DNA of 64,000 bases from Bacteroidales bacterium (GTDB lineage: Bacteria; Bacteroidota; Bacteroidia; Bacteroidales; UBA10428), in contig JBNKPU010000010.1 in the NCBI GenBank assembly GCA_050295515.1, positions 10,826 to 74,825 of the forward strand, written 5' to 3'. Numbering within the stretch: position 1 is the stretch's first letter; each line of letters opens with the position of its first letter. Positions 29,105-57,672 of the stretch are shown piece after piece. The notes under the pieces are model-generated. The model saw only the letters and a list, made by a program, of their open reading frames with translations, did no database searches and was not told the DNA's origin. The position numbers and the translations under genes are program-made.

Positions 29105-29122
29105 TTGTTACAAAAATAACAA
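29105..29122. promoter_or_regulatory. Rex-type operator TTGTTACAAAAATAACAA
   Basis: 12/12 match to TTGTTA-N6-TAACAA, 70 nt upstream of the TM1266-hydG-hydE operon. On the coding strand it contains TATTTTTG (a TAnnTTTG -7 box). Confidence 0.6.
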
Positions 29123-30147: not shown

Positions 30148-30190
30148 TCATTTGAACAAATTAATTGAATTGCATGTAAAGGTTATAATA

Positions 30191-30571: not shown

Positions 30572-30656
30572 AAGAACTATTTTATTTGAAGATAGTTTAA
30601 ATACATCTTCATTGCAAGATACAAAGTATTATATACATGCAAAAAACTTTTTTTCA

Positions 30657-33155: not shown

Positions 33156-33166
33156 GGTCGATTAGT

Positions 33167-35719: not shown

Positions 35720-35737
35720 TTGTGAATTTATTAACAA
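35720..35737. promoter_or_regulatory. Rex-type operator TTGTGAATTTATTAACAA
   Basis: 11/12 match to TTGTTA-N6-TAACAA. Lies about 27 nt upstream of the hoxF ATG, in the divergent hoxF/ald intergenic region. Confidence 0.6.
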
Positions 35738-37157: not shown

Positions 37158-37190
37158 AGAAGGACCCATTTGGGGCCTTCTCTATTTTAT
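37158..37190. terminator. bidirectional hairpin terminator between ald and rex
   Basis: AGAAGGACCC-ATTT-GGGGCCTTCT (one mismatch) followed by a T-rich tract. Confidence 0.6.
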
Positions 37191-37844
37191 AAAGAATCCA
37201 ATTTCTTCAAGTGAAGTGATGATATCATAGTTTTTTAGGTATACATTTTCGGGCACGTCGAGATGTTCTGAAGTAAAATTAAGTATGCCTGTTATTCCAA
37301 CATCAACAATAATATTGGCAAGTTCAACGGCAGAATCGGGTGGCGTTGTCAATACAGCAATATCTACCCCAAGCTCTTTCATCTTCTCAGGCATTGATTC
37401 AATATGGTAGCATGTAACCCCGGCTACTTCTTTCCCAGTCTTTGTTGCATCAATATCAAAACCTGCAACAATGTTCATTTTTGTTTCATTCTTACGGATA
37501 AAGGTTGTAACTGCCCTGCCCAAATTCCCCATTCCAATAATTGCCAGGTTATGGCCACTTTTGGTATCAATCATCTCACTGATATGCTCGATTAGATCTT
37601 TTACATTATAACCTTTACGATGATTCCCCGAAATCCCCAATAACATTAAATCTCTTCGCACCTGCACAGACGTAAGGTTGAGGAGCCTGGCCAAATCGTG
37701 TGAAAAAATATATTGCTCGTCCTTCTGGCTATATTTGCTTAACAAACGCCTGTATTTGCTTAGTCTTTCAATAGTACGCGGTGGTATCTTTTGCTGATCC
37801 AAATTATGATTCAATTTTGATTTTGAAGTTTTGCAAATATACAA
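37182..37844 (-). CDS. rex: redox-sensing transcriptional repressor Rex
   Basis: IPPRTIERLSKYRRLL, SHDLARLLNLTSVQVRRDL wHTH, Rossmann IIGMGNLG. Confidence 0.92.
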   Translation of the reverse strand: MYICKTSKSKLNHNLDQQKIPPRTIERLSKYRRLLSKYSQKDEQYIFSHDLARLLNLTSVQVRRDLMLLGISGNHRKGYNVKDLIEHISEMIDTKSGHNLAIIGMGNLGRAVTTFIRKNETKMNIVAGFDIDATKTGKEVAGVTCYHIESMPEKMKELGVDIAVLTTPPDSAVELANIIVDVGITGILNFTSEHLDVPENVYLKNYDIITSLEEIGFFIK

Positions 37845-38455: not shown

Positions 38456-40750
38456 ATGCCCAGAAATAAGAACGAAGAATTTTATACCTATCAACTATTT
38501 ATTTCAGGGCTTATTCAAGGGGTTGGATTCAGACCTTTCATCTATCGTTTGGCAAAATCATTCAACCTCACAGGCGAAGTGTCAAATCAAAACAATGGAG
38601 TTTCAATTATTGTGAATGGGCATCCATCCATGGTTGACCAATTCATTCACTCAATTAAACTGCAAGCTCCTCATGCTGCTATTGTAGATAATATCATAGC
38701 AGAAAAAATCACTGAAAGAGAATTTTCAGGGTTTTCCATTGGAAAATCATTAACAATCGACAATTCTGTAACTGTTGTCAGTCCTGATATAGCTGTTTGT
38801 GAAGAATGTCTTGACGATATGAAAACACAGCCTAACCGAATAGATTATCCTTTCACGAATTGCACAAATTGTGGCCCCCGGTATTCCATTATAAAGGAAA
38901 TTCCCTATGACAGGAATCAAACAAGTATGAAAGTATTTGCAATGTGTCCTGATTGCGAGAATGAATACAACAATATAGACGACAGACGTTTCCATGCACA
39001 ACCGGTTGCCTGCAACCATTGCGGACCTTCAAATACACTGCAAACTTCACAAAACATTTTCACAGACATCCATGAAATTCTGGAACAACTTTCAGCTGAA
39101 CTTCACCGAGGAAATGTAGTCGCAATCAAAGGTCTGGGTGGATACCATCTTGCCTGTGACCCAAAAAATGAACTTGCCATTAAAAAGCTTAGGTCTGTAA
39201 AAGCCAGGGACAGTAAACCTTTTGCTATTATGGCGAAGGATATTCTTGTTGCGAAAAAAATCACAGATATCTCAAAAATTGAGGAATCGATGCTAACTTC
39301 CTGGCAAAGGCCTATTGTGCTTCTAAAAGCAAAGGACCCTGCTTTTTTTTCTAAAGAAGTAGCCTGCAATTTAGGTACATTGGGGATTTTCTTGCCCTAT
39401 ATGCCTTTTCACCATCAACTATTTGAACACACTTCCTTTGAATATTTGATAATGACCAGCGCAAACCTAAGCGAGTGTCCAATCATTATTAACGATAAAG
39501 AAGCTGTTCAAACCTTTTTGCCTCAAGGTGTACCTGTGCTGTCGCACAATCGTGAAATCGTTAACCGTACTGATGATTCCATTGTTGTTGACATTGGTTC
39601 CAAAAAGCAAATCATCCGTAGATCAAGGGGGTATGTTCCTCTTCCGGTAAATACTAAACTAAATACAGAAGGTTTTTTTGCCACTGGTGCTGAACTTAGT
39701 GGAGCATTTTGCCTTGGCAAAGCTAGGCAGGCTATTTTGAGCCCCTACATTGGAGATATAAAGAATTTCGAAACTATGCAGTTTTACGAGGAGACATACC
39801 ATAGATTAGTGAAACTCTTTAAATTCACTCCTGAAGCAATAGCATGTGACATGCATCCAGATTACCAATCGACCCACTTTGCATTGCAATTTAACCTTCC
39901 TACTTATAAAATCCAGCATCACCATGCACATATAGCATCCTGCATGGTAGAATATTGCCTAGACGAACAAGTAATTGGCGTTTGCTATGATGGTACGGGT
40001 TATGGAACTGATGGCAAAATTTGGGGCAGCGAAATTATGCTTGCTGACTTTTACGGTTTCGAACGCAAATATCACTTTGATTATGTTCCCATCCCTGGTG
40101 GGGACAAGGTTTCTAAAGAGCCTTGGAGAAGTGGGCTGAGCTATTTGATTGAGGCTTTTAAGGAGAATGATCTGTCTTTTTCAAATGTCCTTTTTGCCAA
40201 GGGATTAAACCGCAGGCAAAAAGAGCAAATAGAAATAGCCATTGTAGCCCTTGAAAAAAAAATCAACGCCCCGGAATCATGTAGTGCAGGACGTTTATTT
40301 GATGCTGTTGCATCTATCACAGGAATTTGCACGCACAGCTCTTTTCACGCAGAAGCGCCAATCCTTTTAGAAAACAATATTCAGGATGGTATTTCTGAAA
40401 CTTACCCCATTCAACTTGAAAAGGTAATCGACTGGACGCCGGTAATCCGGAACATTGTTTTTGATTTACAACATGAGGTTTCTGTAAAAATAATCTCGGC
40501 AAAATTCCACAATACTGTAGCTGCAATCATACATAAGGCAGTCGTTAAACTAAAAAATGATACTGGTATTAACAAGGTTGTGCTATCTGGTGGTACTTTT
40601 CAAAATAAATATTTAACCAAAAAAATTGTAGATTTAGTTATTAAATCAGGCATGCAGCCTTTCATGTCCTCCCAGGTTCCTTGCAACGACGGAGGAATCG
40701 CTCTAGGGCAACTGGCAATTGCTGCTAAAAAATTCAGGTCATGTGTTTAA
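38456..40750 (+). CDS. hypF: carbamoyltransferase HypF
   Basis: Acylphosphatase domain (GLIQGVGFRPFIY), two CxxC-x18-CxxC zinc fingers, YrdC-like and Kae1-like domains. 764 aa. Confidence 0.93.
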   Translation: MPRNKNEEFYTYQLFISGLIQGVGFRPFIYRLAKSFNLTGEVSNQNNGVSIIVNGHPSMVDQFIHSIKLQAPHAAIVDNIIAEKITEREFSGFSIGKSLTIDNSVTVVSPDIAVCEECLDDMKTQPNRIDYPFTNCTNCGPRYSIIKEIPYDRNQTSMKVFAMCPDCENEYNNIDDRRFHAQPVACNHCGPSNTLQTSQNIFTDIHEILEQLSAELHRGNVVAIKGLGGYHLACDPKNELAIKKLRSVKARDSKPFAIMAKDILVAKKITDISKIEESMLTSWQRPIVLLKAKDPAFFSKEVACNLGTLGIFLPYMPFHHQLFEHTSFEYLIMTSANLSECPIIINDKEAVQTFLPQGVPVLSHNREIVNRTDDSIVVDIGSKKQIIRRSRGYVPLPVNTKLNTEGFFATGAELSGAFCLGKARQAILSPYIGDIKNFETMQFYEETYHRLVKLFKFTPEAIACDMHPDYQSTHFALQFNLPTYKIQHHHAHIASCMVEYCLDEQVIGVCYDGTGYGTDGKIWGSEIMLADFYGFERKYHFDYVPIPGGDKVSKEPWRSGLSYLIEAFKENDLSFSNVLFAKGLNRRQKEQIEIAIVALEKKINAPESCSAGRLFDAVASITGICTHSSFHAEAPILLENNIQDGISETYPIQLEKVIDWTPVIRNIVFDLQHEVSVKIISAKFHNTVAAIIHKAVVKLKNDTGINKVVLSGGTFQNKYLTKKIVDLVIKSGMQPFMSSQVPCNDGGIALGQLAIAAKKFRSCV

Positions 40751-40968
40751 GTGTTCCGGCAAAATTAACAGAAGTAACTGGCGATATGGGGAAAGCCTCC
40801 ATCGGCGGAAGCATCATTGAAGTAGGCCTTCAACTTATTGAAGATCCAAAAGTAGGCGAATACGTTTTAATCCATACCGGATTTGCCCTGGAGAAAATCG
40901 ATGAAGAAGAGGCTCTAAAAACCCTGGAACTTTTAAGAGAGTTAGGCTCAAATCCTGAATTGTCATGA
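40741..40968 (+). CDS. hypC: hydrogenase assembly chaperone HypC
   Basis: MCLSVPAK N-terminus, 75 aa. Confidence 0.9.
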   Translation: MCLSVPAKLTEVTGDMGKASIGGSIIEVGLQLIEDPKVGEYVLIHTGFALEKIDEEEALKTLELLRELGSNPELS

Positions 40969-42041
40969 AATACATGCATGAATACCGGGACCGTGAAATT
41001 GCTGAAAAACTAATTCAGGAAATAAGATCTGTCTCCAAAAAACATGTTAGGTTAATGGAGGTATGTGGTGGACATACCATGGCCATTAGAAAATACAGCA
41101 TCGACACCCTCCTCCCCAATACGGTTGAGTTGCTATCTGGCCCTGGATGCCCGGTTTGTGTTACAGGACAGGACTTTATTGATAAGGCAATTGCTTTGGC
41201 TCAAAGACCTGATGTGATCCTTACTACCTATGGAGACTTAATTCGTGTACCGGGATCAAAATCTAACCTGGATCAAGCAAAGGCTTTGGGAGCTGATATT
41301 CGTATTGTCTATTCCACATTGGAAGCTCTAAGAATTGCATCAGAAAACCCAGATAAAAAAATTGTATTTCTGGGTATTGGCTTTGAAACCACAGCACCCT
41401 CAACTGCTATATCTCTACAACAAGCCAAGAAACAGGGCATCAAAAATTACTTTGTCCTTTCTGCACACAAAACCATGCCAAATGCAATGACTGCCCTCAT
41501 TGAAGGTGGATCTCAAATCGATGGCTATATAGGTCCCGGACATGTAAGTACTATTGCCGGATCAAAAATTTACAATGAACTGGTCAATCAGTATAATTTA
41601 TCTATAGTCATTTCGGGTTTTGAACCTGTTGATATACTCCAGTCTATACTGATGCTTGTAAAACAGCTTGAACAAGAAAAGCCCAAACTTGAAATCCAAT
41701 ACAAAAGGGCTGTTAAAGCTGAGGGAAATATCAAAGCACAAGAAATTGTTGACGAAGTATTTGAACCCTGCGAGTCATACTGGCGCGGAATTGGCAGCAT
41801 TAAAGACAGTGGCATGAGAATCAGGGGCATTTATGAACAGTTTGATGCAGAAAAACATTTTGTACTGCAGATTGATCAGGCACCCGAACCCAAAGGTTGT
41901 ATATGTGGGGCTATATTAAAGGGACTCAACAAACCCACAGATTGTAAATTGTTCGGAAAGGCTTGTGTCCCGGAAAATCCTGTTGGTGCCTGCATGGTTA
42001 GCGGCGAGGGTACTTGTGCAGCTTATTACAGGTACAGGTAG
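40965..42041 (+). CDS. hypD: hydrogenase formation protein HypD
   Basis: GPGCPVCV, GFETTAP and C-terminal Cys-rich motif. 358 aa. Confidence 0.92.
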   Translation: MKYMHEYRDREIAEKLIQEIRSVSKKHVRLMEVCGGHTMAIRKYSIDTLLPNTVELLSGPGCPVCVTGQDFIDKAIALAQRPDVILTTYGDLIRVPGSKSNLDQAKALGADIRIVYSTLEALRIASENPDKKIVFLGIGFETTAPSTAISLQQAKKQGIKNYFVLSAHKTMPNAMTALIEGGSQIDGYIGPGHVSTIAGSKIYNELVNQYNLSIVISGFEPVDILQSILMLVKQLEQEKPKLEIQYKRAVKAEGNIKAQEIVDEVFEPCESYWRGIGSIKDSGMRIRGIYEQFDAEKHFVLQIDQAPEPKGCICGAILKGLNKPTDCKLFGKACVPENPVGACMVSGEGTCAAYYRYR

Positions 42042-42091
42042 TATATTTTGTATATTTAGCTTTAACTTAAAATCTCATAAACCAAATCAAT

Positions 42092-43108
42092 ATGCCCGAA
42101 AAAATTATCAGAATAGGCCATGGTGCCGGAGGCAAACTTACCCATCAACTTATTGAAGAAATTTTCGTCAAACACTTTTCAAACCCATACCTGGACCAAC
42201 TCAACGATTCATCCGTTTTTGAACTGAACGGCAAAACAGCATATACAACTGACTCTTATGTAATAGATCCAATATTTTTTCCAGGTGGGGATATTGGCAA
42301 ATTAGCTGTTAGTGGTACTGTGAATGACCTTCTATCCTGTGGTGCTGTCCCTAAATACTTAAGCGCCGGATTTATCCTTGAAGAAGGATTTGAGATCGAA
42401 TCCCTGGAAAAAATTGCCATATCCATGGCTGAAGAGGCTTCAAGAAGCGGTGTTCAGATCGTTTGCGGTGATACCAAGGTGGTCAAGAAAGGACAATGTG
42501 ACAAAATCTATATCAACACATCCGGAATAGGCGCTGTTGATCAGAATTGTGAACATTTGAGTCAAGAACCCGAATATCTTATTGGAGACAAGGTTATTGT
42601 AACAGGGAACCTCGGAGACCATGCAATAGCTGTTCTCTCAGCAAGAAACAACATCAGTTTTGAAAAGTCTGTATTAAGCGATGTGGCACCCCTATGTGAA
42701 CTGATGTTTCCAATTTTCACATCAAACGGGAATGATCTCCGGTTTTTAAGGGATATCACCCGTGGTGGGCTAGCAACCGTACTAAATGAGGCAATAGAGA
42801 ATAAAGAATTCTCTATTGAACTTGAAGAAAAAGAAATCCCGGTAAGTTGCGAGGTTGAAGGCATTTGTGAAGTCTTTGGATATGACCCCCTATACCTTGC
42901 CAATGAAGGGAAAATGGTGCTTATAGTCAATGCTGATAAAGCCAATGAAATACTGGAAACTCTCCATCGAAATGATCTCGGGAAGAAGGCAAGCATAATT
43001 GGAGAAGTGACCAATAGAGCTCCTGGTAAAGTCTTGGTCCAACCAACCATAGGCGGAAGCCGTATTGTTGATATGCTCAGTGGTGAAATGCTGCCACGTA
43101 TCTGTTAA
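42092..43108 (+). CDS. hypE: hydrogenase expression/formation protein HypE
   Basis: PurM-like fold with the canonical C-terminal PRIC. Confidence 0.92.
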   Translation: MPEKIIRIGHGAGGKLTHQLIEEIFVKHFSNPYLDQLNDSSVFELNGKTAYTTDSYVIDPIFFPGGDIGKLAVSGTVNDLLSCGAVPKYLSAGFILEEGFEIESLEKIAISMAEEASRSGVQIVCGDTKVVKKGQCDKIYINTSGIGAVDQNCEHLSQEPEYLIGDKVIVTGNLGDHAIAVLSARNNISFEKSVLSDVAPLCELMFPIFTSNGNDLRFLRDITRGGLATVLNEAIENKEFSIELEEKEIPVSCEVEGICEVFGYDPLYLANEGKMVLIVNADKANEILETLHRNDLGKKASIIGEVTNRAPGKVLVQPTIGGSRIVDMLSGEMLPRIC

Positions 43109-43127
43109 TTCTTAGTACAATCAGTTT

Positions 43128-43469
43128 ATGCACGAATTCTCCTTAGCTTCAGATATTATTGATATTGCCAGCCAATCTGCCAAAGCAAATGGCTGTAACC
43201 AAGTAACCAAAGTTATCCTGCGTATAGGTCAATTAGCCGGAGTAGAAGAACCAGCCCTCGACACAGCACTGGAAGCTTTGACTCCGGGCACCATATTATC
43301 CGAGGCGGTATTTGAAAAAGTTCACATCGATGGAAAAGCAAGGTGCCTGGATTGCAATACCGAATTTGGAATTACAGATTTTTTTTCACTTTGTCCAAAT
43401 TGCCAGAGCTTTAGCAAAGATATTTTAGCCGGAAAAGAATTCGATATTGTTTCTATTGATGCAGAATAA
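43128..43469 (+). CDS. hypA: nickel insertion protein HypA
   Basis: MHEFSLA N-terminus and CxxC...CxxC zinc site. 113 aa. Confidence 0.9.
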   Translation: MHEFSLASDIIDIASQSAKANGCNQVTKVILRIGQLAGVEEPALDTALEALTPGTILSEAVFEKVHIDGKARCLDCNTEFGITDFFSLCPNCQSFSKDILAGKEFDIVSIDAE

Positions 43470-43534
43470 GACATTTTGCACTTTTTTTGACTAAAAAAAC
43501 TTTATATTTACAGATAACCTACAAACAATCAATC

Positions 43535-44305
43535 ATGTGTGATACCTGCGGTTGTGGAAATCCAGATGAAGGTTACACAATATCTAAGCCTTCCGACACA
43601 AAAACCGAACCTACTTTAAACCACGAACACGAAAACCATGGACATGGACATGGACATGGGCATGGTCATGGAACAAAAATTGAAATAAACACCCCGGTAT
43701 TAAGCAACAACAACTTATTAGCCGAACGAAACAGGGGCTATTTCGAGGCAAAAGATATCAGGGCTTTTAATATGGTCAGCTCTCCTGGAAGTGGAAAAAC
43801 AACCATATTGGAAAAAACAATCCCTCTTTTAAAAGACAAGGATGTCTGTGTAATTGAAGGCGACCAGCAAACACTGAATGATGCAAAACGTATTGAGCAA
43901 ACTGGCGCAAATGTAATCCAGGTTAATACTGGCAATGGCTGTCACCTTGATGCGGATATGGTCAACCATGCAGTTAAAGAACTGGCTCCAACAGAGGGGG
44001 CCTTGCTTTTTATCGAGAATGTTGGCAATTTAGTCTGTCCGGCACTCTTTGACCTGGGCGAAAAATCGAGGATTGTGATAATAAGTGTCACCGAAGGGGC
44101 TGACAAACCATTAAAATACCCAAATATGTTCGAGACATCGCAATTGTGCATTATCAATAAAACTGACCTCCTGCCTTATGTCGATTTTGATGTAAAACTG
44201 TTTAAGGAATATGCACTGAAAATCAACCATCATCTCGATTTTATAGAACTGTCTGCCAGTAAGGGTGATGGAATCGAAAAATTGATCAGTTGGATATTGG
44301 CATAA
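43535..44305 (+). CDS. hypB: nickel-binding GTPase HypB
   Basis: MCDTCGCG N-terminal motif, His-rich HEHENHGHGHGHGHGHG stretch, GSGKTT P-loop. Start moved to the ATG at 43535. Confidence 0.92.
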   Translation: MCDTCGCGNPDEGYTISKPSDTKTEPTLNHEHENHGHGHGHGHGHGTKIEINTPVLSNNNLLAERNRGYFEAKDIRAFNMVSSPGSGKTTILEKTIPLLKDKDVCVIEGDQQTLNDAKRIEQTGANVIQVNTGNGCHLDADMVNHAVKELAPTEGALLFIENVGNLVCPALFDLGEKSRIVIISVTEGADKPLKYPNMFETSQLCIINKTDLLPYVDFDVKLFKEYALKINHHLDFIELSASKGDGIEKLISWILA

Positions 44306-44311
44306 ACTAAA

Positions 44312-44845
44312 TTATTTCCTGTCGAAAAATACATTCTTTGAAGTGCAGCTCAATGGAATACCATAAATAATCTTTACATCATCTCCCATTAGTCCAAGTT
44401 CTTTTACTGCCATTCCTACCGTATACATAACACGGTTATCTATACGTTCATCCATAGCTATACTCACTGCAGAACCAACAGCAATTCCCAGGTCACCCGT
44501 GTTAAATGCACAAGGATGGTCAGGGTATTTTTTCTTTTCAGCACAGCCACTAAATCCACAAAGACTACAATAAGCAAGGCCCATAGTTTGAATTTTGGTG
44601 CCAAGCAACACCATATATTCTGCTTCAAGAATATTTCCGGCATCGCGGGAAAAAGCTGGTGTGGTATTAGGTCTTGCCCCTATTTCTTTCATACGATTGG
44701 CAATCTTTAGAATATCAGCCTTTTCGGCCAGGACAATCTCCAAATTGTCCATCCCTTTGCCTTTCGGGGCAGTTCGGGCCGCAGCCATCATTTTTAGGGC
44801 AACATTTTTTACAGCCAGCTCCCTTGCTTTTTGTTCTTTGATCAT
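44312..44845 (-). CDS. DUF2148-type ferredoxin-domain protein
   Basis: 177 aa with central CSLCGFSGC...HPC Cys motif and overall family-like sequence. Confidence 0.65.
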   Translation of the reverse strand: MIKEQKARELAVKNVALKMMAAARTAPKGKGMDNLEIVLAEKADILKIANRMKEIGARPNTTPAFSRDAGNILEAEYMVLLGTKIQTMGLAYCSLCGFSGCAEKKKYPDHPCAFNTGDLGIAVGSAVSIAMDERIDNRVMYTVGMAVKELGLMGDDVKIIYGIPLSCTSKNVFFDRK

Positions 44846-45382: not shown

Positions 45383-45400
45383 TTGTTATCTGAATAACAT
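45383..45400. promoter_or_regulatory. Rex-type operator TTGTTATCTGAATAACAT
   Basis: 11/12 match to TTGTTA-N6-TAACAA, about 110 nt upstream of the ATG at 45509. Confidence 0.5.
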
Positions 45401-45441: not shown

Positions 45442-45459
45442 TTGTTATTGAAATAACAG
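45442..45459. promoter_or_regulatory. Rex-type operator TTGTTATTGAAATAACAG
   Basis: 11/12 match. Immediately upstream of a TATCTTTG (TAnnTTTG) -7 box at 45470-45477. Confidence 0.5.
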
Positions 45460-45508: not shown

Positions 45509-45853
45509 ATGAAGATTCGGGAAATAATCAATAGTATAGAAGGCGAATTTGCTTGTGGAGAAAGCCATGCGGACGCACAAATTGACAGGGCATGTGCATC
45601 TGACCTAATGAGCGATATCCTGACTTTAAACTCAGAAGAAATGATTCTGATTACCGGATTAATAAACATGCAGGTTATCCGAACAGCAGAAATGGCAGAT
45701 ATCAAACATATACTCTTTGTAAGAAACAAAAAGCCGAGCCAGGAAATGATCGACTTGGCCAACAGAGAGGACATGAGTATTATTCTCAGTAAAAAATCAA
45801 TGTTTGCCACATGCGGTCTGTTGGCTAAGGCCGGACTAGAAGCAGTATATTAA
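45509..45853 (+). CDS. DRTGG-domain protein 1
   Basis: 114 aa. CASDLMSDIL and LITGL..QVIRTAEM blocks typical of DRTGG. Paralogous to 47632-47982. Confidence 0.75.
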   Translation: MKIREIINSIEGEFACGESHADAQIDRACASDLMSDILTLNSEEMILITGLINMQVIRTAEMADIKHILFVRNKKPSQEMIDLANREDMSIILSKKSMFATCGLLAKAGLEAVY

Positions 45854-46269: not shown

Positions 46270-47616
46270 ATGGAGAAAATGGTTTTTCATCATGCACTTA
46301 AGGTTTTGGAGGATATATGCTACGGCTGTACCCACTGTGTGCGCGTATGCCCCACAGAAGCTTTGCGTGTGCGCGATGGAAAAGCCAACCTGGATGACAA
46401 CCGCTGCATAGATTGCGGAAAATGCATGCAGGCTTGCCCTGTGAATGCTATCATAATCGATCATGACGATTTCAACTCCATTTTTGAATATAAGGTCAGA
46501 GTAGCCCTGGTTTCTTCCATTTTCATAGGCCAGTTTCCAAGGCATTATTCCACAAGGAAAATTTATAGCGGTATCCTTGAACAAGGATTCACTCATGTTT
46601 ACGAAGCTGAACATGGTTCTGGTATCCTTGCTGATGAAATTAATCAGTATTTAGAGCAAAATAAATCTACACGTCCAATAATATCATCTTTCTGTCCGGC
46701 AATAGTAAGATTAGTGCAGGTCCGCTTTCCGAGTCTCACTGAAAACCTGATGCTGTTAAAGGCTCCTTTGGATATTTCTGCCTTATCATTCAAACAGGAA
46801 CTATTGGACCGTGGATTTAAAGAAGATGAAATAGGAATATTCTACATCACTCCATGTGCAGCAAAAATTGCAGCAATAAAAAGCCCTGTAGGTGAGCAGA
46901 ATTCACCAATAAATGGGGTAATCAACATGGATATCATCTACAACAAAGTATACAGGGACCTGAAAAAAGAAACCCGCTCAACCTGCATTGTTCCTGAAAA
47001 AGAACAACTTAAATCAGAAGAAATGGTCTGGAGTTTAACAGGTGGGGAATCCAAAAATATCAATGGGCGGTGCCTGGCTATTGATGGAATCAACAATGCA
47101 ATTGATTTTCTGGAAGGGATAGAAAATGGCAACATTACCAATTTCGACTTTATTGAAGTGCGTGCATGCGACCAAAGCTGCACCGGTGGCATCCTCACTA
47201 CTTCAAATCGCTTTCTGACAACAGAAAGGCTTGAAGAAAGGCTTGTCAAATACGAAAACGACAAAGTTGAAGGCAAACTTTACAACAACAAGTCGATTGA
47301 CAAACATATCGACTTTGTAAAACAAAATATAAAAATTGGGACAATCGAGCCCCGTTCAATGCTCAAGCTAGATGACGATATTGAGTCTGCCATGAAAAAA
47401 ATGGCCCGCATTAAGCGGCTTAATTCATTCCTGCCTGGCATCGATTGTGGAGCTTGTGGTACACCTTCGTGTAAATCCCTGTCTGAAGATGTGGTTCAAG
47501 GCTTTGCCCACACTTCTGACTGTGTTTTTATCCAAACCTCGCTCAATGCCAGTGAAGATAAGCCAATAAGGGCCGAAGAAATTTGGGGCAAAGACAGGTT
47601 CAGGAAATTAACTTAA
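46270..47616 (+). CDS. [FeFe]-hydrogenase-like protein with divergent H-cluster motifs (sensory-type candidate)
   Basis: Two ferredoxin CxxCxxCxxxCP motifs. H-domain motifs are SSFCPAIV (versus TSCCPxW), TPCAAKIAA (versus MPCxxKxxE) and EVRACDQSCTGG (versus ExMACxxGCxxGGGQP). C-terminal LPGIDCGACGTPSCKSL is an RnfB-like Fe-S motif. Confidence 0.75.
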   Translation: MEKMVFHHALKVLEDICYGCTHCVRVCPTEALRVRDGKANLDDNRCIDCGKCMQACPVNAIIIDHDDFNSIFEYKVRVALVSSIFIGQFPRHYSTRKIYSGILEQGFTHVYEAEHGSGILADEINQYLEQNKSTRPIISSFCPAIVRLVQVRFPSLTENLMLLKAPLDISALSFKQELLDRGFKEDEIGIFYITPCAAKIAAIKSPVGEQNSPINGVINMDIIYNKVYRDLKKETRSTCIVPEKEQLKSEEMVWSLTGGESKNINGRCLAIDGINNAIDFLEGIENGNITNFDFIEVRACDQSCTGGILTTSNRFLTTERLEERLVKYENDKVEGKLYNNKSIDKHIDFVKQNIKIGTIEPRSMLKLDDDIESAMKKMARIKRLNSFLPGIDCGACGTPSCKSLSEDVVQGFAHTSDCVFIQTSLNASEDKPIRAEEIWGKDRFRKLT

Positions 47617-47631
47617 GGACATAAGCTATAA

Positions 47632-47982
47632 ATGCTGATGACTATGAAATTAAAAGAAGTTGTTGACAAATTAGAAATAAAAGTAATCTGCGGAGAAGAA
47701 TTCCTCGATAAAGAAGTTACCGGGGGATATTGCTCAGACTTGCTCAGCGATGTTATGGGCCATGCTAATGAAGGGTCAGTATGGCTTACTATTCAAGTAC
47801 ATAAAAACATCGTAGCTGTCGCATCGCTAAAGGAGCTTTCTGCTATTATGTTGGTTCAAGGGCTAATACCGACGGAAGAGACGATAGAAACGGCGCGGGA
47901 ACAAAACATCCCGATCCTTCAGGCGAGTGAGCCTTCTTTCGAGATTGCTGGCAGGTTATACAACTTACTAAGGCAATCATGA
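47632..47982 (+). CDS. DRTGG-domain protein 2
   Basis: 116 aa. YCSDLLSDVM block and overall similarity to 45509-45853. Confidence 0.72.
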   Translation: MLMTMKLKEVVDKLEIKVICGEEFLDKEVTGGYCSDLLSDVMGHANEGSVWLTIQVHKNIVAVASLKELSAIMLVQGLIPTEETIETAREQNIPILQASEPSFEIAGRLYNLLRQS

Positions 47983-48719
47983 GGTGGTATCGTGCCGATA
48001 TGCATATCCATTCAGTTTTGTCCCCCTGTGGGGATTTGGATATGAGTCCGGTGCGAATCATCCATGAAGCCAAAATAAAAGGCTTGGACATCATCGCCAT
48101 AACCGATCATAATGCTTCGGACCATACGCGATTGATGATTGAACTGGGCAAACAGACCGGAATTACAGTTTTTCCGGGATTGGAGGTTAACACCCAGGAA
48201 GAAGTCCATTGCCTGGCGCTCTTTGAAAATATTGAGAAAACCGAATTGTTTCAGGAATACATTGACAAAAATTTACCTGACATTACGAACCGCCCAGAAA
48301 AGTTTGGACACCAGGTAGTTGTCAATAAATCTGAAGAAATTGTGGCTGAAAAGAAAAAGCTTTTGCTCAGTGGAGTTATGGTGGGAATAAGCGAGGTAGA
48401 AAAAAAAGTACATGAACTTGATGGAATATTCATCCCGGCACATGTCGACAGAAAGAGAAACAGTATCTTTTCACAAATTGGTTTTATACCTGAAGACCTG
48501 AAAATTGATGCCATAGAGATTTCTTCCAATGTAGATTTTGAAGAATTTCTAAACACAAAACCAGCATTGAGAAAGTATGCGGCCATTACAAATTCAGATG
48601 CCCATTACCCCGAAAACATTGCCAAATCATCTACCCTGTACTATATGCAGGAACCAACATTTGCTGAGTGGAAAAAATCACTAAGCTGTTCAGGCAACCG
48701 GAAAATTAAGCTGGCATGA
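47979..48719 (+). CDS. PHP-domain metal-dependent phosphoesterase
   Basis: ADMHIHSVLSPCG, IAITDHN and PAHVDR motifs. ATGA overlaps at both ends. Confidence 0.8.
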   Translation: MRWYRADMHIHSVLSPCGDLDMSPVRIIHEAKIKGLDIIAITDHNASDHTRLMIELGKQTGITVFPGLEVNTQEEVHCLALFENIEKTELFQEYIDKNLPDITNRPEKFGHQVVVNKSEEIVAEKKKLLLSGVMVGISEVEKKVHELDGIFIPAHVDRKRNSIFSQIGFIPEDLKIDAIEISSNVDFEEFLNTKPALRKYAAITNSDAHYPENIAKSSTLYYMQEPTFAEWKKSLSCSGNRKIKLA

Positions 48720-49258
48720 AAGAAATATCATTACATATTCTTGATATAGTGCAAAATTCCATTCATGCTGAATCTTCTAAGGTACATATTGAAATTGCCG
48801 AGTCTAAACAACAGGACAAAATCAAGGTTTGCATTACAGATGATGGGCATGGCATGAATACTGAGCTACTTAAAAATGTTCAGGACCCATTCTTTACAAC
48901 AAAGAGTAAAAAAACCGGACTGGGCATCCCTCTTTTGAGGCAACATGCCGAACAAACCGGAGGACATATGACAATAGAATCGGAGCCTGGTATGGGCACA
49001 AAAACAGAAGCTGTTTTTGGACTTACCCATCTTGACAGGCAACCAATTGGAAATATTACTGAAACAATAATCAGCCTAATTAGGACAAACTCCGGAATTA
49101 GGTTTATCTATTCGCACAGTGTTGATCATAAAACATTTGAGCTGGATACACAGGAAGTAGAAAAGGAACTGGATGGACTGTCCATAGGGAATCCTGAGAT
49201 TATAGGTTTTCTCCAAGATATGATCAAAGAGAATTTAAAAGAAATTGGAGCTAGTTAG
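48716..49258 (+). CDS. HATPase_c-only ATP-binding protein (no DHp/HisKA domain)
   Basis: N-box ILDIVQNSIHA, G1 DDGHGM, G2 TGLGIPLL. 180 aa. Confidence 0.75.
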   Translation: MKEISLHILDIVQNSIHAESSKVHIEIAESKQQDKIKVCITDDGHGMNTELLKNVQDPFFTTKSKKTGLGIPLLRQHAEQTGGHMTIESEPGMGTKTEAVFGLTHLDRQPIGNITETIISLIRTNSGIRFIYSHSVDHKTFELDTQEVEKELDGLSIGNPEIIGFLQDMIKENLKEIGAS

Positions 49259-49353: not shown

Positions 49354-49758
49354 ATGGGAAAAGTTAAAACCTTAGATGATCTTAGAAAGCTTCGCGAAGA
49401 ACTGAAAAGCAAAACAAGCCTTCGTGAGAAAAGCGAAAACCCCGAAGAACTTGTTCAGGTAAAAGTTGCCATGGCAACTTGCTGCATCGCTTCAGGTTCG
49501 CGCGAAACCATGAATTATATGGCAGACGAGCTTGAAAAAAGGAACATCGAAGCTGTCGTAACCCAAACTGGATGTATGGGTTATTGCTACGCTGAACCAA
49601 CCGTTGAAGTCAGCATACCAGGAAAAGACCCAATCGTTTTTGGTTATGTCGACGAGAAAAAAGCGGATGAAATTATTGAGAAATATATAAAAGGTGGCGA
49701 ATTGATTGATGGCATTATACCAATGAACTACCAAAATATTGATGAAGACAAAAAATAA
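49354..49758 (+). CDS. thioredoxin-like [2Fe-2S] ferredoxin, HydD-like small subunit
   Basis: 134 aa. Cys pattern ATCCIASGS...GCMGYCYAEP. Immediately upstream of hydB. Confidence 0.7.
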   Translation: MGKVKTLDDLRKLREELKSKTSLREKSENPEELVQVKVAMATCCIASGSRETMNYMADELEKRNIEAVVTQTGCMGYCYAEPTVEVSIPGKDPIVFGYVDEKKADEIIEKYIKGGELIDGIIPMNYQNIDEDKK

Positions 49759-49778
49759 AGTATAGGGGAATATATATT

Positions 49779-51572
49779 ATGTCGGATTATAAAATTCACT
49801 TATTAGTATGCGGTGGCACGGGCTGTAAAGCTTCAGAGAGTGCTCAGGTGGCTGAAAACCTAAAAATGGAAGTAGGCAAACAAGGTCTGGATGATTTTGC
49901 CCAGGTAATAATTACAGGATGTTTTGGCTTTTGCGAAAAAGGACCAATTGTTAAAATTATCCCTGACAATACATTTTACACACAGGTAAAACCTTCCGAT
50001 GCCAGAGAGATCATTGAAGAGCATATTGTAAAAGGAAGAAAAGTAGAAAAACTACTGTATGTTGATCCTGAGAACGAACAAAAAGTCTCAGATTCAAAAA
50101 AAATGAATTTCTATAAGAAACAATTACGTATTGCATTGCGCAACTGTGGTATTATAGATCCTGAAAATGTCGATGAATACATTGCGCGCGATGGATATGA
50201 GGCTCTTGGTAAGGTTTTAACCACCATGACTCCTGAGGAAGCCATTAAGATAATAAAAGACTCTGGTCTCCGGGGCCGCGGTGGTGGAGGTTTCCCAACT
50301 GGCCTAAAATGGGAATTGACCCGCCAGACACCTAGCGATGTAAAATACGTTGTTTGTAATGCAGACGAAGGCGATCCGGGAGCATTTATGGACCGTTCAA
50401 TCCTGGAAGGTGATCCACACTCAGTAATTGAAGCAATGGCCATCAATGGATTTTGCACAGGCGCCAACCATGGTTTGATTTATATCCGTGCTGAATACCC
50501 CCTTGCTATCGAGCGATTGAAAACTGCCATTAAACAAGCCCGAGAATATGGTTTGCTCGGCAATAATATTTTAGGAACTGATTTCAATTTTGACATTGAA
50601 CTCAGATATGGTGCCGGAGCCTTTGTTTGTGGCGAAGAAACCGCATTGATCCACTCTATGGAAGGTGAACGTGGTGAGCCAACAATCAAACCTCCGTTCC
50701 CATCGGTTGAAGGTTACTTGAAAAAGCCTACCAACGTGAACAATGTGGAAACCTATGCCAATATCCCAATTATATTCAATAAAGGTGCAGCCTGGTTCTC
50801 AGCTATTGGAACTGAAAAATCGAAAGGAACCAAAGTATTTGCTTTGGCTGGCAAGGTAAACAATGTTGGCCTTGTTGAAGTGCCCATGGGAATAACCCTG
50901 CGTGAAGTTATTTTCGAAATTGGTGGAGGAATCAAGAATGGCAAAAAATTTAAAGCCGTACAGACTGGTGGTCCATCTGGCGGTTGTTTGACCGAAAAGC
51001 ACCTGGACACTCCTATCGATTATGATAACCTGATCGCGGCCGGCTCTATGATGGGATCTGGTGGAATGGTTGTTATGGATGAAGATGACTGCATGGTGGA
51101 CGTCGCCAAATATTTCCTTGATTTTACAGTAGAAGAATCTTGTGGAAAATGTACTCCTTGCCGCATAGGAAACAAAAGGCTTCACGAAGTTTTGGATAAA
51201 ATCACAAAAGGAAATGGCAGCCGTGCAGATATCGACAGGTTGGTCAACCTTGGTAATGTTATCAAAGACACTTCTCTTTGCGGTCTCGGACAAACGTCTC
51301 CAAATCCTGTGCTGGCAACAATCAACAACTTTAAAGAAGAATATTACGCACACGTTGACGACAAAAAATGTCCGGCAGGAGTTTGCAAAGACCTTATGGT
51401 ATATTCAATCGTTGATGAGAATTGTGTTGGCTGTACTGCTTGTGCAAGGGCTTGTCCGGTAGGAGCTATTACAGGTGAAAGGAAAGAAATTCACAACATT
51501 GATGCTGCATTATGTATTAAATGTGGAGCATGTATCGAGAAATGTAAGTTTAATGCAGTAATTGTAAAATAA
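49779..51572 (+). CDS. hydB: NADH-binding flavoprotein subunit of multimeric [FeFe] hydrogenase (NuoF-like)
   Basis: N-terminal 2Fe-2S module, GRGGGGFPTGLKWE, CNADEGDPGAFMDR, ESCGKCTPCR. Two C-terminal ferredoxin motifs (CVGCTACARACP, CIKCGACIEKC). Confidence 0.92.
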   Translation: MSDYKIHLLVCGGTGCKASESAQVAENLKMEVGKQGLDDFAQVIITGCFGFCEKGPIVKIIPDNTFYTQVKPSDAREIIEEHIVKGRKVEKLLYVDPENEQKVSDSKKMNFYKKQLRIALRNCGIIDPENVDEYIARDGYEALGKVLTTMTPEEAIKIIKDSGLRGRGGGGFPTGLKWELTRQTPSDVKYVVCNADEGDPGAFMDRSILEGDPHSVIEAMAINGFCTGANHGLIYIRAEYPLAIERLKTAIKQAREYGLLGNNILGTDFNFDIELRYGAGAFVCGEETALIHSMEGERGEPTIKPPFPSVEGYLKKPTNVNNVETYANIPIIFNKGAAWFSAIGTEKSKGTKVFALAGKVNNVGLVEVPMGITLREVIFEIGGGIKNGKKFKAVQTGGPSGGCLTEKHLDTPIDYDNLIAAGSMMGSGGMVVMDEDDCMVDVAKYFLDFTVEESCGKCTPCRIGNKRLHEVLDKITKGNGSRADIDRLVNLGNVIKDTSLCGLGQTSPNPVLATINNFKEEYYAHVDDKKCPAGVCKDLMVYSIVDENCVGCTACARACPVGAITGERKEIHNIDAALCIKCGACIEKCKFNAVIVK

Positions 51573-51581
51573 TCTGGCAAA

Positions 51582-53360
51582 ATGGAAAAAGTAAAACTCA
51601 CTATAGATAACAAACAGGTAGAAGTAGCCAAAGGAACGACTATTTACAAAGCAGCCAAGCAACTGGACATTGATATTCCTGTGCTTTGCTACATGCACCT
51701 GGAAGACTTAAAGATAGAACACAAGCCTGGTGGATGCCGCATCTGTGTGGTTGAAGTTGACGGACGCAGAAACCTGGCTCCTTCCTGCTCAACAGAAGCT
51801 ACAGAAGGCATGGTTGTCAAAACACACTCATTGAGGGTGCTGAATGCAAGAAAAACAGTAATGGAGCTGATCCTTTCTGATCACCCAAAAGATTGTTTGT
51901 CATGTGCCAAGTCAGGAAAATGCGATTTACAGGATTTAGCCCAAAAACTAGGTATACGCGAAATCCCAGATCAGGACATTGCTGCAATGTCAACATACAG
52001 GGTAGACTTCTCCCCTTCTTTGATTCGAGAGCTGGACAAATGTATCATGTGCCGCCGCTGCGAAACCATGTGTAACGATTTCCAAACTGTCGGAGCATTG
52101 TCTGCCATAAACCGAGGTTTTGAATCTGTTGTGGCACCAGCATTTGAAATGGACATTGAAGATTCGCCATGTACATACTGTGGTCAATGTGTTGCTGTTT
52201 GTCCAACAGGGGCCTTGACAGAGGTTGACCATACCAACCAATTGATCGAAGACCTGGCCAACCCAAACAAAACTGTGGTAGTTCAAACAGCGCCAGCAGT
52301 GCGTGCAGCTTTGGGCGAAGAATTTAATATGCCGGCCGGCACCAGTGTTACCGGAGAAATGGTTACTGCTCTTCGCGAACTGGGTTTCGATTATGTCTTC
52401 GATACCGATTTCGCTGCTGACCTAACAATTATGGAAGAAGGAACTGAGTTGCTTGACCGATTGACCAAGCACCTGAATGGCGATAAAAAGGTTAAACTTC
52501 CAATTTTAACATCATGCTGCCCGGGATGGGTAAACTTCTTTGAACAACAGTTTACCGACTTGTTGGATGTTCCATCAACAGCCCGCTCTCCTCAGCAAAT
52601 GTTTGGTGCTATTGCCAAGACCTACTTTGCCGATAAGATCAATGTAAAAAGAGAAGACCTGGTTGTGGTATCCATCATGCCATGTCTGGCAAAAAAATAC
52701 GAATGCCAACGCGACGAATTCAAAGTTGACGGTAACCCCGATGTGGATTATTCTGTATCGACCCGCGAATTGGCCAGCCTGATCAAGCGTGCAAACATCG
52801 ATTTAAAAACACTTAAGAAACAAGACTTTGATGCACCTATGGGTGAATCTACCGGTGCTGCCGTGATTTTTGGTGCTACTGGTGGTGTAATTGAAGCTGC
52901 AACACGTACTGCATATGAGATCCATACAGGCAAAACCCTGGAGAAGGTTGATTTTGAAGCACTCCGCGGACTTGATGGCATACGTGAGGCAACTGTTGAT
53001 TTCGATGGATTACCAATCAAAATCGGTATTGCACACGGTTTAGGAAATGCCCGCAAATTACTGGAAGATGTAAGAGCAGGAAAGAGCGAATTCCATGCCA
53101 TTGAGATTATGGCTTGTCCTGGTGGATGTATTGGTGGTGGAGGACAACCCTTGCACCATGGCGATTCAAGTGTGATCCAGAAACGTTTTGAGGCAATCTA
53201 TGCTGAAGACAAAACCAAAACTTTGCGCAAATCGCATGAGAACCCATACATCATAAAGCTGTATGAAGAGTTCCTTGGCAAACCAATGAGCGAAAAAGCG
53301 CATCACTTGCTGCACACACATTATGTGGACAAGAGCAAGAAAGTAATTTATATGAAATAA
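51582..53360 (+). CDS. hydA: catalytic [FeFe] hydrogenase subunit (M3-type, group A)
   Basis: Canonical H-cluster motifs TSCCPGWV, MPCLAKKYE and EIMACPGGCIGGGGQP, plus N-terminal 2Fe-2S and 4Fe-4S domains. Confidence 0.95.
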   Translation: MEKVKLTIDNKQVEVAKGTTIYKAAKQLDIDIPVLCYMHLEDLKIEHKPGGCRICVVEVDGRRNLAPSCSTEATEGMVVKTHSLRVLNARKTVMELILSDHPKDCLSCAKSGKCDLQDLAQKLGIREIPDQDIAAMSTYRVDFSPSLIRELDKCIMCRRCETMCNDFQTVGALSAINRGFESVVAPAFEMDIEDSPCTYCGQCVAVCPTGALTEVDHTNQLIEDLANPNKTVVVQTAPAVRAALGEEFNMPAGTSVTGEMVTALRELGFDYVFDTDFAADLTIMEEGTELLDRLTKHLNGDKKVKLPILTSCCPGWVNFFEQQFTDLLDVPSTARSPQQMFGAIAKTYFADKINVKREDLVVVSIMPCLAKKYECQRDEFKVDGNPDVDYSVSTRELASLIKRANIDLKTLKKQDFDAPMGESTGAAVIFGATGGVIEAATRTAYEIHTGKTLEKVDFEALRGLDGIREATVDFDGLPIKIGIAHGLGNARKLLEDVRAGKSEFHAIEIMACPGGCIGGGGQPLHHGDSSVIQKRFEAIYAEDKTKTLRKSHENPYIIKLYEEFLGKPMSEKAHHLLHTHYVDKSKKVIYMK

Positions 53361-53397
53361 TAAGAAGCGTATAGTATTAACAGAAAAGTAAAAGATT

Positions 53398-53883
53398 ATG
53401 TCTAGAATAAAAGTTGAACTTAAGAAAGAAAAGATAGATAAAATCAACGAAATATGCGCTTCATTCAACAATGATGCTGGTGAGTTGATTAATGTGTTGC
53501 ATAAAGTACAAAGCACTTTTGGTTATCTACCTGCAGAGGTACAGGAAGTTGTTGCCAAAGGTTTAGATGTACCAGTTGCCAAAGTATATGGTGTTGTTAC
53601 CTTTTACAGTTTCTTTACCATGAAACCCAAAGGCAAACATCCCATCTCAATCTGTACAGGTACAGCCTGTTATGTAAGAGGGGCCGAGAAAGTTCTGGAT
53701 GAATTCAAGAAAGAACTTAATGTTAGCGTTGGCGAAACCACTGCAGATGGTAAATTCTCAATTGCATGTCTGCGCTGTGTTGGAGCTTGTGGCCTGGCAC
53801 CAGTGGTTATGGTAGGTGACAAAACTTACGGTAGGGTTGCACCAGAAATGGTGAAGGACATTTTATCCAATTACGAAGACTGA
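53398..53883 (+). CDS. hydC: NuoE-like [2Fe-2S] subunit of multimeric [FeFe] hydrogenase
   Basis: CTGTACYVRG...CLRCVGACGLAP motif. 161 aa. Confidence 0.9.
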   Translation: MSRIKVELKKEKIDKINEICASFNNDAGELINVLHKVQSTFGYLPAEVQEVVAKGLDVPVAKVYGVVTFYSFFTMKPKGKHPISICTGTACYVRGAEKVLDEFKKELNVSVGETTADGKFSIACLRCVGACGLAPVVMVGDKTYGRVAPEMVKDILSNYED

Positions 53884-56166: not shown

Positions 56167-57672
56167 TTATTCATCAATCAATAAAGATATTGAAGGCGCA
56201 TTCCGAATGTTTCCATCGGGACCTACAAGTTTAATAGATTCAAAATATACTTTATTGCCTCGTTTTAGCTGTTCAATTATTTTCTTCTGTTCTGAAGTCA
56301 ACATAGTAGAGTTGGATTTTGCGTCTTTTACATATCCATCGATTGTGGCAGAAACGACAAATTCAACAACCCTGAACGTTAAATCAAAATCAAAATATTC
56401 AATCTCAGCAACAAGTCCTTTTTGTTCAAGCAGCAAATCTTTTTTTATTGCACCTCCCTTTATTCCGGCAATTTTGACAACAGGGTCGGGTACTAATTTC
56501 ACCCTGAACTCTGTTTTCTGAATCGTGTCACCTCCATGAGTAACAACTACATAGGCAATACCAGGTCTCTTTGGACGCACTATATAATTACCTGACGAAC
56601 CACTTATTTCACCATTTGTAACAGAAACAGCAAGCTCGGAGGATTTATAACCTGAAACAGCAATCTTCATTGGATTCTCGACACCAATATAAAGCACATT
56701 CATTTTGACGGGTGCTATGGCTGCCACTACGGGTTCTTCATCTGCCTGCTGCCCATTAATACAGCCAACCACAAAAAACAGCAGGGCTGCCAAGGGTATA
56801 AGCATTAAAGTTCTTAACTTTGCTTTTGGATTAAACTTTTGTTTAGTCATCATAATCATTCGTTTTTTAATAAGTGAATGGTTAAAACTCGAAGAAAGGC
56901 AGATGAGTCTTTCTTCACAAATTTGATTCAGGAGGAGTGCCTGGTACTTGAGTCTGTCAATTCCGGTGCCTAGTACTCCTTCATCTGCTAAATACTCATG
57001 CAAGGTCCTCAGTTCCTTTCTGAACAACCATACAACCGGATTGAACCACATTACGGCCGCTAGCAGTTCAATAAAAAGTATGTCTGCAGAATGAACCTGC
57101 GATGCATGTGTCTTTTCATGTGCCAGGATGATATCAATGTCTTCATCCTGCTTATCTTTTGATAGAAATATCCAACGGAAAAAAGAAAAATCGCCCTTTA
57201 CCTTTTTGCTGATCACCAAAACATAGTTTTCTTTTTTGATCCGTTGACCTCCTGAATAAATATGGATGATTTTAAAAACATGGACAATCAATCTGCCAAG
57301 CATTATACAAGATCCTATAAGTATAAGATAAAACAAAATGGTTTGAAAAGGTATACTTGATCTTTTCTCAGGGATTATAGGGGAAGCTATTTCTCCTTCA
57401 GCATTTAATGTAGCATGATTGTTTTCTATCTGTTCTTCTTGGGTTTGATCTACAGTTTTAGTGCTGGTTGTCGTATTTTGTGCTATATCTAAACCAATAT
57501 CAAAACTGACCTGGCTCAATGGTAAAACAAGGGACAAGAGCAAAACAGCAAGTATAAAAATCCTGGAGTGTAAATAGCTGGTCTTCTTTCTAAAGAGAAT
57601 CCTATACACCAAATAGGCTATGAACAAACAAACAGACGATATTAGATAATACTTCAACAGTTCCATGGTCAT
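56167..57672 (-). CDS. BlaR1/MecR1-like M56 membrane metalloprotease with C-terminal GldM_C-like domain
   Basis: HEKTH zinc motif in a TM context, then HEYLADE. The C-terminal ~190 aa (NVLYIGVENPMKIAVSG...FRVKLVPDPV...) resembles the GldM C-terminal domain as I recall it. Confidence 0.75.
   Translation of the reverse strand: MTMELLKYYLISSVCLFIAYLVYRILFRKKTSYLHSRIFILAVLLLSLVLPLSQVSFDIGLDIAQNTTTSTKTVDQTQEEQIENNHATLNAEGEIASPIIPEKRSSIPFQTILFYLILIGSCIMLGRLIVHVFKIIHIYSGGQRIKKENYVLVISKKVKGDFSFFRWIFLSKDKQDEDIDIILAHEKTHASQVHSADILFIELLAAVMWFNPVVWLFRKELRTLHEYLADEGVLGTGIDRLKYQALLLNQICEERLICLSSSFNHSLIKKRMIMMTKQKFNPKAKLRTLMLIPLAALLFFVVGCINGQQADEEPVVAAIAPVKMNVLYIGVENPMKIAVSGYKSSELAVSVTNGEISGSSGNYIVRPKRPGIAYVVVTHGGDTIQKTEFRVKLVPDPVVKIAGIKGGAIKKDLLLEQKGLVAEIEYFDFDLTFRVVEFVVSATIDGYVKDAKSNSTMLTSEQKKIIEQLKRGNKVYFESIKLVGPDGNIRNAPSISLLIDE

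Follow-up and report, generated by a model that had tools for sequence, protein, structure and literature searches.

What does an [FeFe] hydrogenase do that keeps the ligands of its H-cluster, has lost the proton relay of the prototypical catalytic enzymes and is encoded upstream of a complete catalytic hydrogenase? The question is raised by hydS, a gene on a 64,000-nucleotide stretch of contig JBNKPU010000010.1 from a Bacteroidales bacterium (hereafter the window, meaning the whole stretch analysed). A sequence-only reading had described its product, HydS, as a protein of sensory type with an unusual architecture. We conclude with good confidence that HydS is a group D (M2e) [FeFe] hydrogenase, an orthologue of TamHydS, and that it probably senses H2 and, as we propose, hands the signal to a relay of proteins encoded next to it. 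The class itself is already published, as are its layout without a PAS domain, its lack of the relay Cys, its C-terminal cluster, its association with a bifurcating hydrogenase and its members from Bacteroidales. A pocket signature of the Bacteroidota branch and a cassette shared across phyla, with natural fusions, go slightly beyond the group D literature that we found.

Class and motifs of HydS

Group D comprises PAS-less enzymes with a C-terminal cluster and without the relay Cys C299 (CpI numbering), encoded upstream of a bifurcating hydrogenase (Land 2020, PMC8163306; Cabotaje 2023, PMC10407848; Schumann 2026, PMC13104023). The C-terminal motif Cx2Cx4Cx16C has been published for M2e and M2f (PMC8163306). 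TamHydS of Thermoanaerobacter mathranii, studied since 2020, is the model enzyme of the group; in 2023 it was still described as the only one characterised (PMC10407848), and the later group D papers that we found study TamHydS alone. A list of 70 group D enzymes includes Parabacteroides, Odoribacter, Alkaliflexus, Anaerophaga, Marinilabilia and Proteiniphilum (PMC13104023, Table S6).

HydS and TamHydS are 38% identical over 423 residues (BLASTP, E = 4e-107), with all landmark residues in register, and over its full length HydS is closer to TamHydS than to the neighbouring group A subunit HydA (24% identity, E = 6e-12). The TamHydS protein used here (435 residues) was stitched from three frames of the codon-optimised DNA in the supplement of PMC13104023, which contains machine-reading errors and frameshifts. 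The stitched protein fits 20 of 20 published residue numbers, has one undefined residue near position 345, and shows 99% identity to a database entry and 96% to a protein from Thermoanaerobacter. Both proteins lack a PAS domain and have the same domain order, the four H-cluster Cys, the Lys equivalent to K358 and the Cx2Cx4Cx16C cluster.

The open reading frame (ORF) of hydS encodes 448 residues; the public gene call of an identical protein begins at Met4 and gives 445 residues, and the exact sequence is already in public data. From the N-terminus, two [4Fe-4S] clusters are followed by the H-domain and a C-terminal [4Fe-4S] module (Table 1). HydS has 18 cysteines, which sort into five sets; C239 and C268 are unpaired. 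Those of the F-domain are near-invariant among 127 family representatives aligned with MAFFT, and Fer4-type Pfam matches cover residues 17-61. At the other end, the Pfam 'FeS' domain PF04060 matches residues 388-420 (E = 6.8e-11), in agreement with the RnfB-like CxxCGxxxC module that had been read from the stretch LPGIDCGACGTPSCKSL (residues 388-404, nucleotides 47431-47481). That motif was incomplete, as a fourth Cys, C418, extends it to Cx2Cx4Cx16C. Pfam (E ≤ 1e-3) gives no PAS domain in HydS, where 30 residues separate the last Cys from the C-terminus. The earlier statement that a PAS domain is missing therefore stands, whereas the view that this sets HydS apart from sensory enzymes as an unusual architecture fails, because a PAS-less layout with a C-terminal cluster defines the published group D / M2e.

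The three H-cluster motifs of HydS are SSFCPAIV (residues 139-146, nucleotides 46684-46707), TPCAAKIAA (residues 194-202, nucleotides 46849-46875) and EVRACDQSCTGG (residues 296-307, nucleotides 47155-47190). Their positions and the TTC codon of Phe141 were confirmed in the translation, and the by-eye alignment to HydA on which the sequence-only reading relied was reproduced by two methods: MAFFT of 127 full-length family representatives together with HydA, and global hhalign of the HydS family profile against 37 group A HydA sequences (probability 100%, E = 1e-41). In CpI numbering, which was derived from canonical motifs and is consistent with the published papers, both methods pair F141 with C299, C142 with C300, C196 with C355, K199 with K358, C300 with C499 and C304 with C503. 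They further pair T194 with M353, A202 with E361, R298 with M497 and W254 with F417, and E296 with the Glu that precedes motif 3. Against PDB hydrogenases, the local HMMER alignments, from the single sequence or the profile, ended before motif 3 and gave no test of C499 and C503, so the equivalence of these two positions is taken from the global hhalign and MAFFT alignments. On this basis the H-cluster Cys and the motif 2 Lys are in register as had been claimed, and the cysteines superpose on the cluster ligands. The losses read by eye were likewise found: Ala replaces the Glu of motif 2, Arg the Met of motif 3, and the GGQ of GGGQP is deleted in both alignments.

An AlphaFold2 model of HydS (mean pLDDT, the predicted local distance difference test score, 81.7; predicted template modelling (pTM) score 0.81) bears out the same assignment: its Foldseek matches are [FeFe] hydrogenases only (probability 1.0, template modelling (TM) score 0.55-0.62 on query length) and include CbA5H, DdHydAB, HydA subunits of HydABC, and CpI. 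The top matches of the HydS-family profile in the PDB are all [FeFe] hydrogenases as well (E from 1e-37 to 1e-30), while its C-terminal part matches RnfB residues 41-83 of 9eri_B; a group D structure is not present in the PDB. Like the Pfam scores, these matches lie far outside what chance would give. The family counts 314 proteins at E ≤ 1e-30 in a library of 50%-identity cluster representatives and at least 592 matching stretches in one-genome-per-species contigs. The nearest named relatives, up to 84% identical, come from metagenome-assembled genomes of Bacteroidales.

Two other classes of [FeFe] hydrogenase were considered and rejected. CpI and the neighbouring HydA share with HydS the H-domain fold, the four cluster Cys, K358 and the Glu preceding motif 3, but HydS replaces or deletes C299, M353, M497, E361 and GGGQP, has no small-subunit-like C-terminus and carries the extra C-terminal Fe-S module. 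The prototypical group A motifs TSCCPxW, MPCxxKxxE and ExMxCxxGCxxGGGQP, with C299, M353 and M497, are not found in it, and the NCBIfam group A model gives 72.5 bits where its cut-off is 405.95. The group C (M2f) enzymes TmHydS, RaHydS and HfsB resemble HydS in that they have two N-terminal [4Fe-4S] clusters, lack the relay Cys in their H-domain and carry a C-terminal Cx2Cx4Cx16C cluster. A role as H2 sensors, serving a co-located group A enzyme, has been proposed for them as well (PMC8163306, PMC13104023). They differ in their C-terminal PAS domain and their link to PP2C-type phosphatases. A PAS domain after the Cx2Cx4Cx16C cluster, required for group C, has no match in HydS, and longer members of the HydS family carry DRTGG or HATPase domains.

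Table 1 Positions of hydS, its domains and the neighbouring features in the window
Feature	Position	Strand	Basis or remark
hydF	9860-11092	+	NCBIfam, 487.4 bits
hydE, radical-SAM maturase	26263-27336	-	NCBIfam, 347.6 bits
hydG, radical-SAM maturase	27350-28774	-	NCBIfam, 512.6 bits
Further palindrome	29105-29122		
Further palindrome	35720-35737		
Palindrome upstream of the hydS cluster, TTGTTATCTGAATAACAT	45383-45400		
Palindrome upstream of the hydS cluster, TTGTTATTGAAATAACAG	45442-45459		
DRTGG-domain protein 1, 114 residues, invariant SDLxSD motif	45509-45853	+	Pfam; stop overlaps next start
SpoIIAB-like GHKL ATPase or Ser-kinase, HATPase_c_2, 138 residues	45853-46269	+	Pfam; stop abuts hydS ATG
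hydS, assigned to group D / M2e [FeFe] hydrogenases	46270-47616	+	ORF and translation, 448 residues
HydS N-terminal F-domain, two CxxCxxCxxxC [4Fe-4S] motifs	46318-46437	+	C17, C20, C23, C27; C46, C49, C52, C56
HydS H-domain, residues 78-307	46501-47190	+	Pfam Fe_hyd_lg_C PF02906, 1.6e-23; ligands C142, C196, C300, C304, plus K199
Phe141 codon TTC	46690-46692	+	where CpI has the proton-relay Cys, C299, and TamHydS has A137
Arg298 codon	47161-47163	+	position of M497 of CpI, L291 of TamHydS
HydS C-terminal [4Fe-4S] module, Cx2Cx4Cx16C, RnfB-type PF04060	47431-47529	+	C393, C396, C401, C418
DRTGG-domain protein 2, 116 residues, invariant SDLxSDV motif	47632-47982	+	Pfam, locus comparison, conservation
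PHP-family phosphoesterase, 246 residues, His/Asp metal ligands kept	47979-48719	+	Pfam, locus comparison, conservation
Second GHKL ATPase, HATPase_c, 180 residues, no DHp/His-phosphotransfer domain	48716-49258	+	Pfam, NCBIfam, conservation
hydDBAC, NuoE/F-type bifurcating group A [FeFe] hydrogenase	49354-53883	+	Pfam; 1.7 kb downstream of hydS
hydD	49354-49758	+	
hydB	49779-51572	+	
hydA	51582-53360	+	
hydC	53398-53883	+	

Proton pathways and the active-site pocket

The sequence-only reading held that HydS lacks proton-relay residues. This is correct for the group A pathway, where F141, Q126, Q130 and M161 occupy the positions of C299, E282, R286 and S319 of CpI; E123 pairs with E279 of CpI in a column that is variable within the clade. 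It does not hold for the alternative path proposed for group D, whose residues are kept: T257, E260, D272 and E296 correspond to S249, E252, D265 and E289 of TamHydS, and the two proteins thus share both the loss of the group A path and the retention of the other. The reading of HydS as a sensory-type enzyme, with cluster ligands kept and the group A relay lost, is supported.

Conservation was compared between 197 Bacteroidota homologues and 119 TamHydS-like Firmicutes sequences. E260, E296 and D272 are 100% conserved in the Bacteroidota set. The cluster Cys, K199, E260 and E296 are kept in both clades with at most one exception in the 316 sequences, and W254 and D272 show no variation in one clade and very little in the other. 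The position of C299 varies across the family (A 42, S 24, F 19, T 14 and Y 5 among the 127 representatives) and is fixed within clades, being Phe in 188 and Tyr in nine of the Bacteroidota sequences against Ala in 114 and Ser in five of those from Firmicutes. The M497 position holds Arg (194) or Lys (3) in Bacteroidota and Leu in 108 of the TamHydS-like sequences; at M353, Bacteroidota have Thr with a few Ser, and the TamHydS-like enzymes Ser or Thr. As judged from these alignments, the Bacteroidota branch has a pocket signature of its own, Phe/Tyr with Arg/Lys, against Ala with Leu in the TamHydS-like enzymes. None of the enzymes characterised in the group D literature found has a Phe/Arg pocket. 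HydS itself has F141 for A137, R298 for L291 and T194 for S191 of TamHydS, and its host is a Bacteroidales bacterium, that of TamHydS a thermophilic Firmicute.

Gene context, palindromes and other hydrogen genes

hydS is the third of ten close-packed genes on one strand, which end with hydDBAC. Two small ATPases and two DRTGG paralogues stand among them; both ATPases retain the N, G1 and G2 boxes, which are invariant in the SpoIIAB-like one, and SDLxSD is common to both paralogues. For the 138-residue ATPase the best NCBIfam match is the anti-sigma F factor, at 68 bits and under the cut-off. TamHydS is flanked in the same way by DRTGG, HATPase_c_2, DRTGG, PHP and HATPase_c, and it too lies upstream of a bifurcating hydrogenase.

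The cassette proteins were compared by tblastn with 81 related loci from a genome scan that returned Bacteroidota loci only; the context in Firmicutes comes from a second protein search and contig look-ups. DRTGG, HATPase_c_2 and HydS are neighbours in essentially all of the 81 loci, and most run on collinearly through DRTGG, PHP, HATPase_c, HydD, HydB, HydA and HydC. Among the Bacteroidota loci with DRTGG, ATPase and HydS only are L033, L051, L053, L055, L059, L064, L065, L068, L071, L075, L077, L078 and L081, which have neither an adjacent DRTGG-PHP-HATPase block nor hydABC. The DRTGG-PHP-HATPase block lies upstream in four loci (L049, L056, L061, L067). The same cassette is present in Thermoanaerobacter and Caldicellulosiruptor bescii, where a NuoE-like hydC sits between the PHP and second ATPase genes (L082, L083); in Bacteroidales it follows hydA. 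A gene for a DUF2148 ferredoxin-domain protein (44312-44845, minus strand) diverges from the hydS cluster. The 75%-identical locus L001 (8388-8942) has the same layout, which was not detected in the other related loci.

Natural fusions join the same components. The HydS core is fused to a C-terminal DRTGG domain in P0140, P0159, P0194 and P0254, to an N-terminal one in P0177 and P0193, and to a SpoIIAB-like HATPase domain in P0170. No PAS domain was found in any of these seven fusions. Family members of 530-610 residues were considered as PAS-bearing group C enzymes; this was ruled out, as they are DRTGG or HATPase fusions.

The arrangement recalls partner switching of the SpoIIAB/SpoIIAA type: a small stand-alone GHKL protein, nearest to anti-sigma F factor and with an intact ATP site, adjoins small candidate substrate proteins and a phosphatase. 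It differs in having DRTGG in place of STAS and PHP in place of PP2C, and in having no sigma factor nearby; the function is predicted. A literature search for DRTGG with hydrogenase returned nothing relevant. We regard the DRTGG, ATPase and PHP proteins as candidate signalling partners of HydS. Group D lacks PAS domains, and how it passes on its signal is an acknowledged question.

By analogy with TamHydS, HydS would receive the [2Fe] subsite with its azadithiolate bridge ([2Fe]adt) and would react with H2 slowly and with high affinity, that is, a low Michaelis constant (Km). Since the reaction is slow and the Km low in TamHydS, HydS would serve as a gauge that reports the H2 level and would carry no metabolic flux. 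Gene order, overlaps and fusions suggest that the DRTGG proteins encoded alongside HydS and the SpoIIAB-like ATPase or kinase may read its H2-dependent state. From the gene context, the PHP phosphoesterase and the second GHKL ATPase could complete a phosphorylation-based relay that adjusts HydDBAC, the presumed target of regulation; the output step could be transcriptional or post-translational. Tentatively, then, group D may signal through a new, dedicated relay in which HydS docks the SpoIIAB-like GHKL kinase and the SDLxSD-bearing DRTGG proteins, opposed or followed by PHP and the second GHKL protein, with the Phe/Tyr-Arg/Lys pocket of Bacteroidota as a distinct tuning of the H2 site. We put this forward as a possibility that we hold to be somewhat less probable than its opposite.

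A separate layer of control is suggested by the palindrome TTGTTA-N6-TAACAA. At one mismatch or fewer it occurs four times in the window against 0.66 expected, always in intergenic positions upstream of hydrogenase-related operons, namely hydG/hydE, a [NiFe] hox-like operon and the hydS-hydABC cluster. Upstream of orthologous clusters it is enriched 46-fold (1.52 against 0.033 per kb; 34 of 77 loci). The enrichment is confined to this threshold; at two mismatches or fewer the pattern is at chance level, and the classical Rex box TTGTGAA-N4-TTCACAA, at three mismatches or fewer, is not above chance in the window (11 against 8.6 expected). We take the palindromes to be probable Rex operators, going by the clostridial Rex consensus. 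Judged by the two upstream sites, transcription of the cluster is probably under Rex (NADH/NAD+) control, independent of HydS. The window also encodes a Rex-type redox-sensing repressor with Put_DNA-bind_N and CoA_binding domains (37182-37844, minus strand), located between the [NiFe] operon and the hyp genes.

Further hydrogen genes surround the cassette. HydE, HydF and HydG all score over their NCBIfam cut-offs, and the window thus holds the full H-cluster maturation set. An aspartate ammonia-lyase-like gene (8386-9849, plus strand; 431.6 bits against a family cut-off of 510) ends 10 nucleotides before hydF and may encode a maturation-linked lyase. The [NiFe] hydrogenase operon (29245-35693, minus strand), probably of the NAD-linked Hox (group 3) type, contains fused NuoE/F-like, NuoG-like, small and large subunits and a maturation protease, together with a stand-alone response-regulator receiver gene (30191-30571) and a 300-residue ORF without a family match. 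The [NiFe] maturation genes hypF, hypC, hypD, hypE, hypA and hypB (38456-44305, plus strand) were recognised from their translations; together with the other clusters they turn the window into a 45-kb island of hydrogen metabolism. At 56167-58064 (minus strand), a BlaI-type repressor adjoins BlaR1 (peptidase M56) with GldM C-terminal domains, an unusual combination.

Weighing the readings, and meaning

Could HydS instead be a slow catalytic hydrogenase, or the electron-entry subunit of a HydDBAC complex? TamHydS is bidirectional and turns over H2 (PMC10407848), hydS lies on the same strand as hydDBAC and is tightly packed with it, and the ferredoxin clusters at the N-terminus belong to the catalytic-relay type (PMC8163306). 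TamHydS, however, turns over only about 0.1 µmol H2 per mg per min and shows an overpotential whichever way it runs (PMC10407848). The immediate and fused partners are kinase-like or DRTGG proteins rather than redox subunits, and some genomes have DRTGG, ATPase and HydS but no adjacent hydABC, which makes a catalytic role unlikely in our judgement. We give next to no weight to HydS as an RnfB-type electron-transfer subunit. Many homologues carry the label 'RNF subunit RnfB' at the Joint Genome Institute (JGI), and PF04060 and Fer4 domains are common to RnfB, but 230 residues in the middle of HydS form an [FeFe] hydrogenase H-domain. The RnfB identity was accordingly rejected; the rnfB model TIGR01944 gives 51.7 bits, below its cut-off of 68.7, and the neighbours are hyd genes, with no adjacent rnf genes.

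A different doubt concerns the metal site. The H-domain might hold a [4Fe-4S] cluster only, as in the eukaryotic Nar1/NARF proteins, with Phe141 and Arg298 filling or disturbing the diiron pocket. Phe/Tyr and Arg/Lys are indeed fixed in the Bacteroidota branch where the characterised enzyme has Ala and Leu, the stretch at A230-P231-S232 of CpI differs in this branch, and AlphaFold2 confidence falls at residues 305-310, just past the bridging Cys. Yet four residues are invariant or nearly so: K199 (equivalent to K358, which partners the distal CN ligand), W254, C304 as the bridging Cys, and E260 (a proposed contact of the adt amine). The window also encodes the maturases HydE, HydF and HydG. 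We favour a diiron site because the conservation of K199, W254, C304 and E260 is hard to explain otherwise, and consider a Nar1-like protein very improbable.

Several points nevertheless weigh against HydS as an H2 sensor with the proposed relay. Phe141 and Arg298, bulky or charged and beside the adt bridgehead, could alter or block insertion of the [2Fe] subsite. The characterised group D enzyme comes from Firmicutes, so that the function of the Bacteroidota HydS is assigned by analogy, and the sensory role of TamHydS is itself termed putative in the literature. The C-terminal cluster of TamHydS keeps its redox state under H2 (PMC13104023). We infer the partner-switching idea from gene context and natural fusions; in about a quarter of the related loci the downstream DRTGG-PHP-HATPase block is missing or sits in another place, and the cassette encodes no DNA-binding output protein. 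The palindrome pattern, finally, was picked partly after two of the sites had been seen. With these points included, we still favour the assignment of HydS to the TamHydS-like group D enzymes, as a probable sensor.

Taken alone, hydS is one more group D gene and changes little. The hydS-hydABCD regulatory cassette is common to thermophilic Firmicutes and Bacteroidales, including the gut genera Parabacteroides and Butyricimonas, and therefore H2-dependent control of fermentative H2 production may work alike in gut and sediment Bacteroidales. [quoted passage not shown] The conserved neighbours and natural fusions provide concrete partner candidates for the transmission of an H2 signal by PAS-less enzymes.

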